Shown here one piece after another: positions 1,213 to 35,543 of a DNA stretch of 35,543 nt. The first letter of the stretch is position 1; every line of letters starts with the position of its first letter. The position numbers were made by a program, and so were the translations under genes. The stretch is from the IMG/VR virus record IMGVR_UViG_2582581022_000006. One strand, 5' to 3'. The notes under the pieces are model-generated. The model was given only the letters and a program-made list of their open reading frames with translations. It searched no databases and was not told the origin of the DNA. This DNA comes from a virus (lineage: Duplodnaviria; Heunggongvirae; Uroviricota; Caudoviricetes).

Positions 1213-1409
1213 GGCATTCTCCTGCCAGGCCTCAAGCTGCCCTTTTTGATTAGACTTGAGATAAATGACAGGGAATAAGTGAGATATTTATGGGAAGAAC
1301 TGGGTCAAAATGGGAAGAGACTAGGAGGAATATGCAATAACCTTACAGTATGTGAAAATCAGACCGGCCCGAAAAAAAAACAGAACTCGCGCCAGCCTGA
1401 TTGCAGATA

Positions 1410-1799
1410 TTACTCTTTTTTCTCCGTATCTGCATCGGGTTCATCAGCAAATAGCTTGCCCTGCATCCGATCCAGTTCTTCTTTTCTTACCCGCTTAACC
1501 ACGCTGTAGACCCACTGAAGCGAAACACCAAATTTGCGGGCCAGTTCGTGGTGGTTGCGTCCGTTAAACTCCCTGAAGATTTCCCGGTCGCGCTGACTGA
1601 CCTTCCATACCATGCCCATCGGGAAATAAACGTTTTGCCCGCCCCAGACCTGCATCATTCGGTTCGCGACGGCCTGACCAATCTGGTCGGCAACTTCGGG
1701 CTCAATATCAATAATCTCGCGAACGGTCTCAGAGGTATGCTGTGCCAGTTCCACCAGGAGTTCCGGCCCCTTACTTCGAAACTGATTCAGGTCGCTCAT
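1410..1799 (-). CDS. mor: Mor/C-family transcriptional activator of late genes
   Basis: 129 aa, same length as Mu Mor. C-terminal region (REIFREFNGRNHHELARKFGVSLQWVY) matches the Mor/C HTH region. Last gene of the early operon. Confidence 0.75.
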   Translation of the reverse strand: MSDLNQFRSKGPELLVELAQHTSETVREIIDIEPEVADQIGQAVANRMMQVWGGQNVYFPMGMVWKVSQRDREIFREFNGRNHHELARKFGVSLQWVYSVVKRVRKEELDRMQGKLFADEPDADTEKKE

Positions 1800-2220
1800 G
1801 TTTGACTCCCGCAGCTCTGCGCTGCCACTTCTTCAGTTTCTCAATAACACTGCTTGCCTGTTCAGTACTGAGCCAGCGCAGGGCGCTGATGCCCGTTTCC
1901 CGCTTGATCCACCTCGCTAATGCATTTTCTGAACGGTCACGAACAATGCCGGCAGCAGCCATTTCAAGCCATAGCGCACGAATTTTCCTGGACTGCGGAT
2001 GGTTATCAAGCGGTAAACCGGAGCTGGCTTTTCTGGCTGGTTTAACGCGAAAGCCTTTCTTTTTCATGGATTCCAGCACGCAGTTTAGTTGTGTGGTATC
2101 CATTCCTTTGGTTGAGGCTTTACCGGTCAGCCCCTGTAACATCTGGCGGTAGGTGTCTTCATCCATACCCAGTTCATTACGGGCAATATGGATAAGCTGT
2201 ATCAGGCGTTTTTTCTGCAT
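1771..2220 (-). CDS. GemA-like protein (Mu gp16 / DUF1018 family)
   Basis: 149 aa; N-terminal LIQLIHIARNELGMDEDTYRQMLQGLTGKAS resembles the GemA family. Lies immediately upstream of mor, as in Mu-like phages. Confidence 0.55.
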   Translation of the reverse strand: MQKKRLIQLIHIARNELGMDEDTYRQMLQGLTGKASTKGMDTTQLNCVLESMKKKGFRVKPARKASSGLPLDNHPQSRKIRALWLEMAAAGIVRDRSENALARWIKRETGISALRWLSTEQASSVIEKLKKWQRRAAGVKHERPESVSK

Positions 2221-2221
2221 A

Positions 2222-2428
2222 TCATCTCCTTTTTTTCAGTCTGTCGGCAACAATGTCGGTTGCAGCTGGCAGGGGGACTGGCCAGAACAACATGACGGCG
2301 GTCATGTACAGGATGTAATGCGCGGTGTCGTAGTGCCTGCCATAGCCCAGGGAACGATGAAGTCTTGCGCTGCATGATCCTGCGTACATATACCAGAAAA
2401 GAAAACAGACAATGGTTTCAGTAGTCAT
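2222..2428 (-). CDS. Small hydrophobic protein (start uncertain)
   Basis: Stop abuts the GemA-like start. Internal Met start gives ~68 aa with hydrophobic segments; the full ORF 2222-2584 overlaps the next ORF. Confidence 0.3.
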   Translation of the reverse strand: MTTETIVCFLFWYMYAGSCSARLHRSLGYGRHYDTAHYILYMTAVMLFWPVPLPAATDIVADRLKKRR

Positions 2429-32885: not shown

Positions 32886-33233
32886 ATGAAAACAACCTCA
32901 GTATTCTGGCAACCGACCCTGCAGGCTCCCGGCGAAATTGTCCGGGGGCTGGATGATATCCGGCAGGCGATTCAAATTATCCTGCGGACTCCCCGCGGCA
33001 GCGACCCGCATCGCCCGGAGTTCGGCAGCAATCTGCATCTTTATATCGACTGGCCTGTAGACCGGGCCATTCCGCATGTGGTGCGCGAATCCGTCGATGC
33101 CATCCGGCGCTGGGAGCCCCGCTGCCAGCTTATGTCAGTTAAACCCGCCGTCGACGGCGAACATCTTACGCTCCGGGTGAGCTGGAAAGGCTCAGACGGA
33201 CAGACCCGGACTCAGGAGCTGCTATGGCGCTGA
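32886..33233 (+). CDS. Baseplate wedge protein, GPW/gp25-like
   Basis: 115 aa; RPEFGSNLH...RRWEPR matches the GPW/gp25 pattern. Confidence 0.7.
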   Translation: MKTTSVFWQPTLQAPGEIVRGLDDIRQAIQIILRTPRGSDPHRPEFGSNLHLYIDWPVDRAIPHVVRESVDAIRRWEPRCQLMSVKPAVDGEHLTLRVSWKGSDGQTRTQELLWR

Positions 33234-34327
33234 CAGAACCCGATTTTATTGAACGCGATGCCGACAAAATCACGGCAGAAATGATTGCGAAGTATGAAGC
33301 GGATACCGGCAAAACGCTGTACCCGGCACAGGCAGAACGTCTGCTGATTGATCTGTGGGCCTATCGCGAAATGCTGGTCAGGGTTGCGGTACAGGAGGCA
33401 GCAAAGCAGAATCTGGTCGCCTTTGCCCGTGAGCCGATGATTGATTACCTCGGTGAACTGGTCGGTGTATACCGTCTTGCCGCGCAGCCTGCCACTACCA
33501 CGCTCCAGTTCTCCGTAGATGAGGCACTGGCCATTGATGTGCTGATCCCGGCAGGCACCCGCGTCAGCGCTTCCGACAGCGTTATTTTTGCCACCGATAC
33601 AGATGTGGTACTGAAGGCCGGATTGCTGCTGGTCAATGTCACGTCCACCTGTACCGAACCCGGTACCGCTGGTAACGGCTGGCAACCTGCGCAGGTCAGT
33701 CAGTTACTCGATGAGATTGATAACGTCGACCTGCTGGTGAGCAATCTGACGGCCAGTTCCGGCGGTTCAGAACAGGAAGACGATGACAGGCTCCGGGAGC
33801 GTATCAGGCTGGCCCCGGAGTCATTCACCAATGCCGGAAGCCGTGGCGCATACCGCTTTCATGCCATGCAGGCCCATCCCAACATTGTCGATGTTGCTGT
33901 GCTTTCCCCGGTTCCCGGGACCGTAGATCTGTATCCGCTGCTCAGTACCGGTCTGCCGGACGGCGGTGTTCTCACGCTGGTAGAGAGTTTCTGCTCTGAT
34001 GAGAAAGTCAGGCCACTCACTGATACAGTGCGGGCTAAAACACCAGTGAAGGTGGATTACACCATTGAAGCCAGGATTACGATCTATCGTGATCAGGATG
34101 CCAGGTCTGTAAAAGATGCCGCTAACAGCGCCATACAGAACTGGGTGGCATCACGTGCCGCCACGCTGGGGCGCGATATTGTCCCCAGCCAGATTATCAG
34201 TGCATTGTCCGTTTCCGGGGTGTACCAGGTTGAACTGGTGACACCGGCACTGCGGGTGGTGGCAGAAAACGAATGGGCAAACTGTACGGCAATCACTCTT
34301 AACATGACTGGAGTGTCTGATGACTGA
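33224..34327 (+). CDS. Baseplate J-like protein
   Basis: 367 aa following the gp25-like gene. Confidence 0.65.
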   Translation: MALTEPDFIERDADKITAEMIAKYEADTGKTLYPAQAERLLIDLWAYREMLVRVAVQEAAKQNLVAFAREPMIDYLGELVGVYRLAAQPATTTLQFSVDEALAIDVLIPAGTRVSASDSVIFATDTDVVLKAGLLLVNVTSTCTEPGTAGNGWQPAQVSQLLDEIDNVDLLVSNLTASSGGSEQEDDDRLRERIRLAPESFTNAGSRGAYRFHAMQAHPNIVDVAVLSPVPGTVDLYPLLSTGLPDGGVLTLVESFCSDEKVRPLTDTVRAKTPVKVDYTIEARITIYRDQDARSVKDAANSAIQNWVASRAATLGRDIVPSQIISALSVSGVYQVELVTPALRVVAENEWANCTAITLNMTGVSDD

Positions 34328-34898
34328 GCCATTACAACTCCCGCCACCGCTTGAGGGTGATATCAGTCTCAGGACGCTGGGAAGACTGGCAGGACGGCTG
34401 GATAACATCGACCTGAGCGTACTGATGGTCTTTCTCGTCGATATCGTCGACAGTTCCGCGCTGCCATGGCTGGGCGAGCAGTTCTCACTGTCTGGCGATG
34501 GCTGGGAGCTGGCGGAATCGGACGATGTTCGCCGCATGCTTATAAAAGCAGCCATCGAACTGCACCGGTATAAAGGGACGCCGTGGTCAATCCGGGAAGT
34601 TATCCGCCGTTTTGGCTTTGGTGAAGTGGATCTGATTGAAGGCACAGGTCGTCTCAGTTACGACGGCAATCGCAGCTATAACGGACTGTTTGTTCATGGA
34701 GATGCAGCCGCCTGGGCAGTTTATCGCGTTATTCTGAAACAGCCCATTACTAACGATCAGGCCGCGATGCTGCGTCAGACGCTGGCTGCATTTGCACCGG
34801 CCCGCTGCCATCTGGCCAGCCTGGAGTATCAGTCTGTGGCCATTCGCTATAACAATACCGCCATCCATGATGGCAGTTATAACCACGGGAGCAGTTGA
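34320..34898 (+). CDS. Baseplate/tail protein (P2 gpI / Mu gp48-like)
   Basis: 192 aa between the J-like gene and the tail fiber. Confidence 0.55.
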   Translation: MTEPLQLPPPLEGDISLRTLGRLAGRLDNIDLSVLMVFLVDIVDSSALPWLGEQFSLSGDGWELAESDDVRRMLIKAAIELHRYKGTPWSIREVIRRFGFGEVDLIEGTGRLSYDGNRSYNGLFVHGDAAAWAVYRVILKQPITNDQAAMLRQTLAAFAPARCHLASLEYQSVAIRYNNTAIHDGSYNHGSS

Positions 34899-34900
34899 TT

Positions 34901-35543
34901 ATGGGAAACCTGAATGAAACAGAAAAGTGGGAAGAAAATATCTATCAACTGGAGACATCAGATCCGGTTCTGGGTGGTGCAGACGGGATATCAAATCGAG
35001 CCCCCCGGCAACTGGCAAACAGGACGAAATGGCTGAAGAAGAAAACGGAGGAAGCCGCACAGTCACTGGCTGAACACGTACGTTCCCGTAACCACCCGGA
35101 CGCGACACTGACAGCTAAGGGGTTCACCCAACTGAGCAGTGCCACCAACAGCACCTCTGAAACGCTGGCCGCCACACCAAAAGCGGTCAAGGCTGCATAC
35201 GACCTGGCAGCCGGCAAGGCGCCTGCCAGCCACACTCACCCGTGGAGTCAGATAACGGGAGTGCCTGCGGCTTCACTGACGGCAAAAGGCACCGTACAAC
35301 TGAGCAGCGCCACGGACAGTCAATCAGAAACTGAGGCTGCCACGCCGAAGGCGGTCAAGGCTGCATACGACCTTGCAGCCGGCAAGGCGCCCGTCAGCCA
35401 CACTCACCCGTGGAGTCAGATAACGGGAGTGCCTGCTGCCTCGCTGACGGCAAAAGGCACCGTACAACTGAGCAGCGCCACGGACAGTCAATCAGAAACT
35501 GAGGCTGCCACGCCGAAGGCGGTCAAGGCTGCATACGACCTTG
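34901..35543 (+). CDS. Tail fiber protein, 3'-truncated by the window edge
   Basis: Frame from ATG 34901 stays open to 35543. Contains tandem 56-aa repeats LTAKG..QLSSAT..SETEAATPKAVKAAYDLAAGKAP.SHTHPWSQITGVPAAS. Confidence 0.7.
   Translation, partial: MGNLNETEKWEENIYQLETSDPVLGGADGISNRAPRQLANRTKWLKKKTEEAAQSLAEHVRSRNHPDATLTAKGFTQLSSATNSTSETLAATPKAVKAAYDLAAGKAPASHTHPWSQITGVPAASLTAKGTVQLSSATDSQSETEAATPKAVKAAYDLAAGKAPVSHTHPWSQITGVPAASLTAKGTVQLSSATDSQSETEAATPKAVKAAYDL
35108..35543 (+). repeat. Tandem in-frame 168-bp repeats inside the tail fiber gene (at least 2.6 copies)
   Basis: Units start at 35108, 35276 and 35444; copies 2 and 3 nearly identical, copy 1 diverged. Confidence 0.85.

Follow-up and report, generated by a model that had tools for sequence, protein, structure and literature searches.

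A probable BcepMu-type transposable prophage in the Q gene of a lambdoid prophage, with a nucleoid-associated protein and membrane protein gene pair beside its repressor

We analysed a 35,543-nucleotide stretch of viral DNA, IMG/VR record IMGVR_UViG_2582581022_000006 (hereafter the window), and conclude with a probability of roughly 0.93 that its positions 1247-35543 are the left 34.3 kb of an intact-looking prophage of a BcepMu-type transposable temperate myovirus, which integrates by DDE transposition and not by site-specific recombination. An earlier note on this DNA had proposed a transposable prophage of this type, and its proposal is borne out by colinearity with BcepMu over 33 open reading frames (ORFs), by protein identity, by the layout of the ends and by the insertion sites of relatives. 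Judged from these relatives, the prophage has a full length of ~37.4 kb and its right end lies ~3.1 kb past the window end, in keeping with the note's expectation that it would be found beyond the window. Genes are tightly packed from 1247 to the window end, and every early and late module was assigned by Pfam (Table 1). As the note had also claimed, the early genes run opposite to the late genes: the early block lies on the minus strand, with the Mor gene at the left end and the repressor gene internal, while the plus strand carries the CI-type repressor gene and, from 13443 to the window end, the lysis, head and contractile-tail genes.

Transposition is supported directly by related prophages at five loci. 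Five E. coli chromosomal prophage copies, each 36.8-37.9 kb, were compared; all start TGATTAGACTTGAG and finish GCGCGGCGCATCA, having identical TGATTAGAC...GCGCATCA ends (TG...CA), and perfect direct repeats of 6 bp, different in sequence from copy to copy, flank each of them. The duplications are CCAGTT in the ylbE/fdrA intergenic region, AACAGA in hyfJ, GTCACC in a lambdoid NlpC/P60 tail gene (tail gene K; the copy in NZ_LR883012.1), GCAAGG in a yidK-type symporter gene and TGAAGG in a group II intron reverse transcriptase gene, and the window copy occupies a sixth site, in a Q gene. The short target duplication foreseen at both ends was thus found in full in the five relatives; for the window copy, its left half is predicted. 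Among elements related to BcepMu that have an rve core, TG...CA termini are the typical form (PMC2628397). The closest relative, in enterotoxigenic E. coli isolate L4_E1441 (NZ_LR883012.1, 3765037-3802433), is 99.994% identical to the window prophage across all of its 34,297 bases with 0 gaps, including the immunity region and the cargo genes described below, but sits at another insertion site, a lambdoid tail gene (GTCACC) as opposed to the lambdoid Q gene of the window. That near-identical copies occupy different sites implies that mobility was very recent. Like the window copy, the NZ_LR883012.1 copy lies inside a lambdoid prophage gene.

The left terminus and the insertion site of the window copy were shown by comparison with the relatives and with E2348/69. 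Identity with the relatives begins at 1247, so the left end is there and not at 1300, where it had earlier been placed. Bases 1-1246 come from a resident lambdoid prophage and match E. coli E2348/69 at 100% identity; they contain three tRNA genes and a Q antiterminator gene that lacks its 5' end (Pfam Phage_antiter_Q, from profile position 34). The uninterrupted E2348/69 site reads ...gctgCCCTTTTgttgatcc, or in a longer reading ...GCTGCCCTTTTGTTGATCC, within a 690-bp Q gene; this intact gene matches the window up to position 1246, and the window departs from it after CCTTTT, which places the insertion point 71 bp inside the Q gene. CCTTTT would accordingly be the target duplication of the window copy, with its right copy outside the window. 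Since the window breaks off from the empty site after CCTTTT, we predict a right junction of ...GCGCATCA followed by CCTTTTGTTGATCC, ~3.1 kb past the window end; in longer form, ...GCATTTATCGCGCGGCGCATCA and then CCTTTTGTTGATCCACTC, the remainder of gene Q, are expected ~37.4 kb from 1247. The insertion splits Q and should cripple late gene expression of the resident lambdoid prophage; that its Q antiterminator is knocked out by the window copy is an observation of practical use. The exact left boundary and the 6-bp duplication rule likewise serve annotation. Within bases 1-1246, ARAGORN called a tRNA-Lys(ttt) gene at 280-355, between tRNA-Arg and a tRNA with anticodon CAT; at the corresponding positions of E2348/69, RefSeq has only tRNA-Arg and tRNA-Ile.

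Inside the terminal TG, two repeats, GAGATAAATG (1258-1267) and GAGATATTTA (1281-1290), are likely transposase-binding sites, judged by their likeness to those at the ends of BcepMu. The layout TGA(A/T)-N7-G(A/C)GATA(A/T)(A/T)T, with a second copy of the repeat ~22 bp further in, is common to the window and BcepMu; in BcepMu it is present at both ends, and the window shows the left end only, the right CA being beyond it.

The group has Burkholderia phage BcepMu as its prototype (Summer et al., 2004, via PMC3417384 and PMC2628397). Of the window's ORFs, 49 (48 belonging to the prophage) were compared with BcepMu (NC_005882.1) by tblastn. A total of 33 ORFs matched, all of them colinear and in the same orientation, with 31-76% amino-acid identity: the lysis cassette (13443..15481) corresponded to BcepMu gp21-25 at 32-61%, the head module (15481..24497) to gp26-38 at 44-67% and the contractile tail module (24487..35543) to gp39-51 at 31-76% identity. 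The two phages share an early module inverted from repressor to Mor, an rve/Tn552-type transposase (68.5% identical) accompanied by an ExeA-type ATPase of ~400 amino acids (aa; 59%), a terminal TG with an equal repeat layout at the left end (CA closes the right end in the window's relatives), a variable cargo slot between repressor and holin, and Mu-like head genes combined with P2-like tail genes. BcepMu differs in being without Gam and Dam, in place of which it has SSB-, HU- and DUF3164-type genes, and in its right-end cargo, an acyltransferase gene as opposed to the invertible fibre segment and invertase of the window's relatives. As these sequence comparisons stand, the BcepMu-type assignment holds on gene order, protein identity and terminal-repeat architecture.

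The two transposition enzymes fit the same assignment. The putative transposase is 68.5% identical to BcepMu gp09 over 98% of its length, 57% identical to the transposase of Pseudomonas phage B3 and 98.8% identical to that of E. coli phage PhiKM. The earlier prediction of an rve-type DDE enzyme agreed with the Pfam match (E = 1e-8) and with residues D160/D254/E290, which do not vary among five phages: the window copy, BcepMu, Pseudomonas phages B3 and Bise, and a Leptolyngbya phage. The gene directly downstream in the early operon encodes an ATPase that is 59% identical to BcepMu gp08 ('DNA transposition protein', 404 aa), with a Walker A motif (GESGAGKS) at residue 151 and a Walker B motif (VLVIEE) at residue 240; by sequence it would be a functional analogue of Mu B. 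Earlier described as longer than Mu B at 401 aa, it does exceed the 312 aa of Mu B, but the figure of 401 belongs to the maximal ORF from a GTG codon, and the length from the ATG codon, which is the RefSeq call in the relatives, is 388 aa. No BLASTP similarity was detected between the transposase and MuA (E = 0.47) or between the ATPase and Mu B (E = 2.6), and tblastn to Mu gave no matches for the MuA and Mu B genes. A sequence search for homologues of solved structure returned only marginal, uninformative matches for either enzyme. The Gam gene has no BcepMu counterpart; because its product resembles Mu Gam, the early region appears to be a mosaic of Mu-type and BcepMu-type parts. The Mor and GemA genes form the distal end of the early operon, and a block of small early genes spans 2222..4324.

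A comparison with BcepMu-family genomes, as proposed in the earlier note, also yielded a close and colinear relative in PhiKM (PQ738613.1; Bcepmuvirus in GenBank taxonomy), entered in GenBank as a phage of uropathogenic E. coli. PhiKM is 97.7% identical over 86% of window positions 1300-25000 and has an equal gene order; it differs in having other Ner-position and repressor genes, an extra ORF of 105 aa and no cargo pair, and by these sequences is probably of a different immunity type. Outside 8187-13371, the window prophage is ~99% identical to PhiKM and to TUM14759. Within that interval, which holds the immunity region and cargo, sequence is replaced or diverged relative to both (80-90% identity or no match), and both have another immunity region without the cargo pair. 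This pattern suggests that variants of different immunity exchange a cassette at 8187-13371. The PhiKM record is permuted and partial, with the right end and invertase missing, and at 20200-20576 it runs from the tail-fibre gene through ~330 bp that carry the annotation of an ABC transporter permease fragment to the phage left end; this stretch may derive from flanking host DNA or from faulty assembly. A search for literature specific to PhiKM found none.

The absence of an integrase was weighed against the possibility that the prophage integrates site-specifically, using an integrase and att sites past the window end. No tyrosine or serine recombinase and no integrase-type Pfam match was found in the window, either among all of its coding ORFs or, on the antisense side, among the nine longest. 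The window, however, stops before the right end, and just past the position of its end all five relatives encode a serine recombinase, so that the earlier statement that neither kind of recombinase is present stands for the window and fails, as regards the serine type, for the full element. This recombinase has 190 aa, is 77% identical to Mu Gin and adjoins inverted copies of the tail-fibre and fibre-assembly genes, in a segment whose orientation varies among genomes (invertible segment and invertase region at 38028-40270 of the excerpt from one relative and at 37830-39556 of that from the NZ_LR883012.1 copy). Its sequence identifies it as a Gin-type DNA invertase for tail fibres and host range, and not as an integrase; because it is an invertase, the conclusion of integration by transposition stands. 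The earlier note had named an integrase with att core repeats at the ends as the finding that would overturn transposition. No integrase was present in the window, the five relatives lie at five unrelated sites with differing 6-bp duplications and no common att core, and the window insertion falls within coding sequence. We therefore regard site-specific integration as extremely improbable.

Equally hard to credit is a place for the prophage in Muvirus, the lineage of Mu itself, with its left arm rearranged. It shares with Mu a DDE transposase with an ATPase, a terminal TG (paired with CA at the right end in the relatives), the lack of an integrase and homologues of Mor, GemA, Gam, gp27-30 and G, and a Gin-type tail-fibre switch is present in the relatives; seven ORFs have Mu homologues, with identities of 61.5% for Gam, 49% for the large terminase and 47% for F. 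These seven (Mor, GemA, Gam, large terminase, portal, F and G) are, however, the only ORFs with tblastn matches to Mu (NC_000929.1), nucleotide similarity to Mu is 1.6%, transposase and ATPase have no detectable relation to MuA and Mu B, and the tail genes are of P2/BcepMu type without Mu matches. The duplication is 6 bp, compared with 5 bp in Mu. In Mu, moreover, the repressor lies at the left end and the early operon is co-oriented with the late genes, neither of which applies to the window prophage. The earlier description of an early operon diverging from the repressor was correct, but not its qualification 'unlike Mu', because Mu c and Pe are divergent too; the true difference is that the whole module from repressor to Mor is inverted relative to the late genes, with Mor abutting the left end and the internal repressor gene facing the lysis genes.

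A third alternative, that the window copy is a defective, immobile remnant, truncated or rearranged past the window, is unlikely, though less so than the other two. Cryptic prophages are many, the right 3 kb are outside the window, and RefSeq marks the tail-fibre gene of the 99.994% relative as a pseudogene with an internal stop, reflecting either the inversion state or real damage. On the other hand, all window ORFs are equal in length to their annotated counterparts in relatives, the NZ_LR883012.1 copy aligns without a gap over 34.3 kb, very recent mobility follows from the near-identical copies at different sites, and a 97.7%-identical phage record (PhiKM) exists in GenBank.

Several further observations count against an intact BcepMu-type transposable prophage as we describe it. 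The right end and the second copy of the duplication are beyond the window, which gives the element's own integrity and transposition no direct view here, and the exact left junction had no match among the complete E. coli genomes of our collection. Replicative transposition and packaging with host flanks are carried over from the biology of Mu and BcepMu. Promoter and terminator matches were no commoner than in shuffled sequence. Nucleotide similarity to BcepMu is only ~24% (a blastn-based estimate), and megablast gave no match. The ICTV threshold for Bcepmuvirus in the strict sense is ~70% nucleotide identity to BcepMu genome-wide; the window prophage thus falls below the required >=70% intergenomic similarity to the type species, and its kinship with BcepMu lies in the proteins and the genome plan.

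For the BcepMu-type prophage, we propose the following scheme. In the lysogen, the CI-type repressor (9742-10149) would shut the leftward early promoter in the 88-bp control region, whose role is suggested by its position, and the repressor transcript would probably extend over the downstream cargo pair. A candidate for this promoter, Pe, is the sequence TTGACA-16-TACAAT, running from 9725 to 9698 on the minus strand, which matches sigma-70 better (11/12) than any other sequence in 9300-13900; its position is suggestive of such a function. Derepression would release a leftward transcript encoding, in order, the Ner-position and IclR-type helix-turn-helix (HTH) proteins, the DUF3102 protein, transposase, ATPase, Gam, the small proteins, GemA and Mor. 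The transposase would bind the paired G(A/C)GATA(A/T)(A/T)T repeats inside each TG...CA terminus and synapse the two ends, and the 3' ends would be joined to target DNA, chosen with the help of the ATPase, at a 6-bp stagger, giving near-random insertions with 6-bp duplications while Gam shields DNA ends. Transposition would be replicative, and packaging would proceed by the headful with host flanks. Mor, the product of the final early gene, would activate the rightward lysis, head and P2-like tail genes, and the Gin-type invertase, acting on the invertible tail-fibre segment at the right end beyond the window, would switch host range.

The late genes do not directly follow the repressor gene; in between are a low-GC cargo pair (10220-12435) and the minus-strand Dam methylase gene (12425-13195). 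The cargo pair lies directly downstream of the repressor gene in the same orientation, with a 2-nt gap between its genes and a GC content of 41-42%, compared with 53-60% in the late genes (14001-35000). The first gene encodes a YejK-like nucleoid-associated protein (NAP). The second encodes a 401-aa protein without a Pfam family, of which residues 1-260 have a pI of 4.96 (40 acidic and 28 basic residues) and residues 262-378 include three hydrophobic segments; an AlphaFold2 model built from 46 homologues (mean predicted local distance difference test score 82) has an alpha/beta N-domain followed by long helices. Homologues of the 401-aa protein (166 at E<=0.001) are spread across Enterobacterales, Shewanella and Paraburkholderia, and in four unrelated contexts the homologue gene immediately follows an NA37 gene: in Xenorhabdus adjoining Mu-type tail genes, in Paraburkholderia adjoining an Mrr-like nuclease gene, in Shewanella, and in a Salmonella lambdoid prophage between Q and holin. 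The full cassette was present in only 19 of ~636 E. coli genomes matching the region.

This architecture resembles that of type II PANGU, a system that, according to a report of April 2026, senses chromosome degradation induced by phages. In it the NAP Pag2A is paired with Pag2B, whose N-terminal domain is acidic (a DNA mimic) and whose C-terminal domain is transmembrane; one tested example, PANGU-Ecu, came from uropathogenic E. coli (bioRxiv 10.64898/2026.04.06.716658). Like type II PANGU, the cargo is a two-gene operon (gap below 40 bp) with the YejK-like NAP gene first and a second protein of ~400 aa whose N-terminal part is acidic and whose C-terminal part is predicted to span the membrane, and the pair is conserved across genera; it differs in that the module in the window is phage cargo beside a repressor. 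Assigned by architecture, the cargo pair is probably a new instance of type II PANGU. More tentatively, and with the odds somewhat against it, the pair may be a working PANGU-like sensor of host-chromosome degradation that serves as a superinfection-exclusion module harmless to the phage itself. Because a Mu-like phage transposes into an intact host chromosome without degrading it, its own lytic cycle would not trigger such a sensor, while T4-like, chromosome-degrading invaders would. By analogy with lambda rexAB and cI, the module would be transcribed with the repressor gene. Kiwa was considered for the pair and rejected: the PADLOC match to KwaA was weak and partial (E=8e-5, 21 bits), the partner is NA37 and not DUF4868, no PDB sequence match was found, and Foldseek of the model against the PDB gave nothing at E<0.2. 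As a natural phage-borne example of a PANGU-type module beside a repressor, the cargo offers a convenient test case for a new defence; it is the fresher item in this prophage and the only part worth experiment.

The element as a whole belongs to a type of prophage that is common in E. coli. Of 5426 complete E. coli genomes, 640 (~12%, about one in eight) carry the transposase/ATPase pair, at <=3 copies per genome, and Bcepmuvirus-type prophages were reported earlier in E. coli sequence type 131 (ST131) and in gut isolates. The type is already known: BcepMu is its named prototype, PhiKM is on record as a sequenced E. coli phage, and RefSeq includes a near-identical copy.

Table 1. Coordinates of the left end and genes of the prophage in the window, with the basis of each assignment.
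Feature	Position	Strand	Basis or remark
Predicted left copy of 6-bp target-site duplication, CCTTTT	1241..1246		E2348/69 empty site and relatives' duplications
Prophage left end, terminal TG, starts TGATTAGAC	1247..1409	+	Identity with five relatives starts exactly at 1247
Mor/C-family late activator	1410-1799	-	Pfam Mor 1.3e-43; 54% to BcepMu gp01, 30% to Mu Mor
GemA/gp16 protein	1771-2220	-	Pfam GemA 8.3e-41; 44% to BcepMu gp02, 36% to Mu GemA
Six short early ORFs	2222-2428, 2418-2648, 3325-3540, 3555-3851, 3861-4133, 4130-4324	-	Annotated in RefSeq relatives too
DUF2786/DUF7168 protein	2645-3364	-	Pfam; annotated in RefSeq relatives too
Gam, protects DNA ends from host nucleases	4422-4952	-	Pfam Phage_Mu_Gam 1.1e-40; 61.5% to Mu Gam
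AAA+ (AAA_22/ExeA-type) helper ATPase	5252-6418 (maximal GTG ORF to 6457)	-	Pfam AAA_22 3.8e-20
rve-type DDE transposase, 589 aa	6429-8198	-	Pfam rve 1e-8
DUF3102 protein	8202-9113	-	Pfam; BcepMu gp10 41%
IclR-type HTH protein	9124-9432	-	Pfam; BcepMu gp12 35%
Ner-position HTH protein	9429-9653	-	Pfam
Divergent control region, 88 bp	9654..9741		Candidate early promoter Pe inside
CI/Cro-type repressor, 135 aa	9742-10149	+	Pfam HTH_3 3.9e-11, Phage_CI_repr 5e-6; start per RefSeq relatives
YejK-like NAP	10220-11227	+	Pfam NA37 1e-80; PDB YejK 9be2 6.8e-30
401-aa protein, acidic N-terminal and C-terminal membrane domains	11230-12435	+	No Pfam family
Dam-type N6-adenine DNA methyltransferase	12425-13195	-	Pfam MethyltransfD12 7.3e-28; PADLOC MTase_II 3.7e-115
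Holin	13443-13793	+	Pfam Holin_2-3 6.3e-41
SLT transglycosylase endolysin	13796-14524	+	Pfam SLT 1.7e-14
Spanin/lipoprotein	14508-15158	+	RefSeq name
Membrane protein of lysis cassette	15155-15481	+	RefSeq name
gp26-like	15481-15792	+	Head module (Pfam)
Mu gp27-type small terminase	15792-16337	+	Head module (Pfam)
Large terminase	16334-17929	+	Head module (Pfam); 49% to Mu counterpart
Mu-type portal	17929-19425	+	Head module (Pfam)
Mu F-like	19406-20227	+	Head module (Pfam); 47% to Mu counterpart
Mu G-like	20230-20688	+	Head module (Pfam)
Protease/scaffold	20903-22018	+	Head module (Pfam)
Major capsid	22033-22986	+	Head module (Pfam)
Cement/DUF2190	22996-23334	+	Head module (Pfam)
gp36	23336-23782	+	Head module (Pfam)
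Gp37	23782-24246	+	Head module (Pfam)
Small ORF	ends 24497	+	Head module
P2-type sheath	24487-25914	+	Tail module (Pfam)
Tube	25914-26435	+	Tail module (Pfam)
Chaperone	26817-27152	+	Tail module (Pfam)
Tape measure	27310-30000	+	Tail module (Pfam)
gpU, gpX, gpD	30000-32238	+	Tail module (Pfam)
gpV, gpW, gpJ, gpI baseplate proteins	32235-34898	+	Tail module (Pfam)
Tail fibre	from 34901	+	Tail module (Pfam); window end interrupts gene

Between the G-like and protease/scaffold genes of the head module is a 214-bp non-coding gap (20689-20902), at the position of Mu's strong gyrase site and P_I late promoter. A Mu-type strong gyrase site in the gap was considered and rejected, as alignment to the Mu gyrase-site region gave no convincing similarity. 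The gap contains a 12-bp palindrome, CCTTTATAAAGG, and a 16-nt motif, TTTATAAAGGCTTTAC. BcepMu has this motif unchanged, although identity between the flanking proteins is only ~45-49%.

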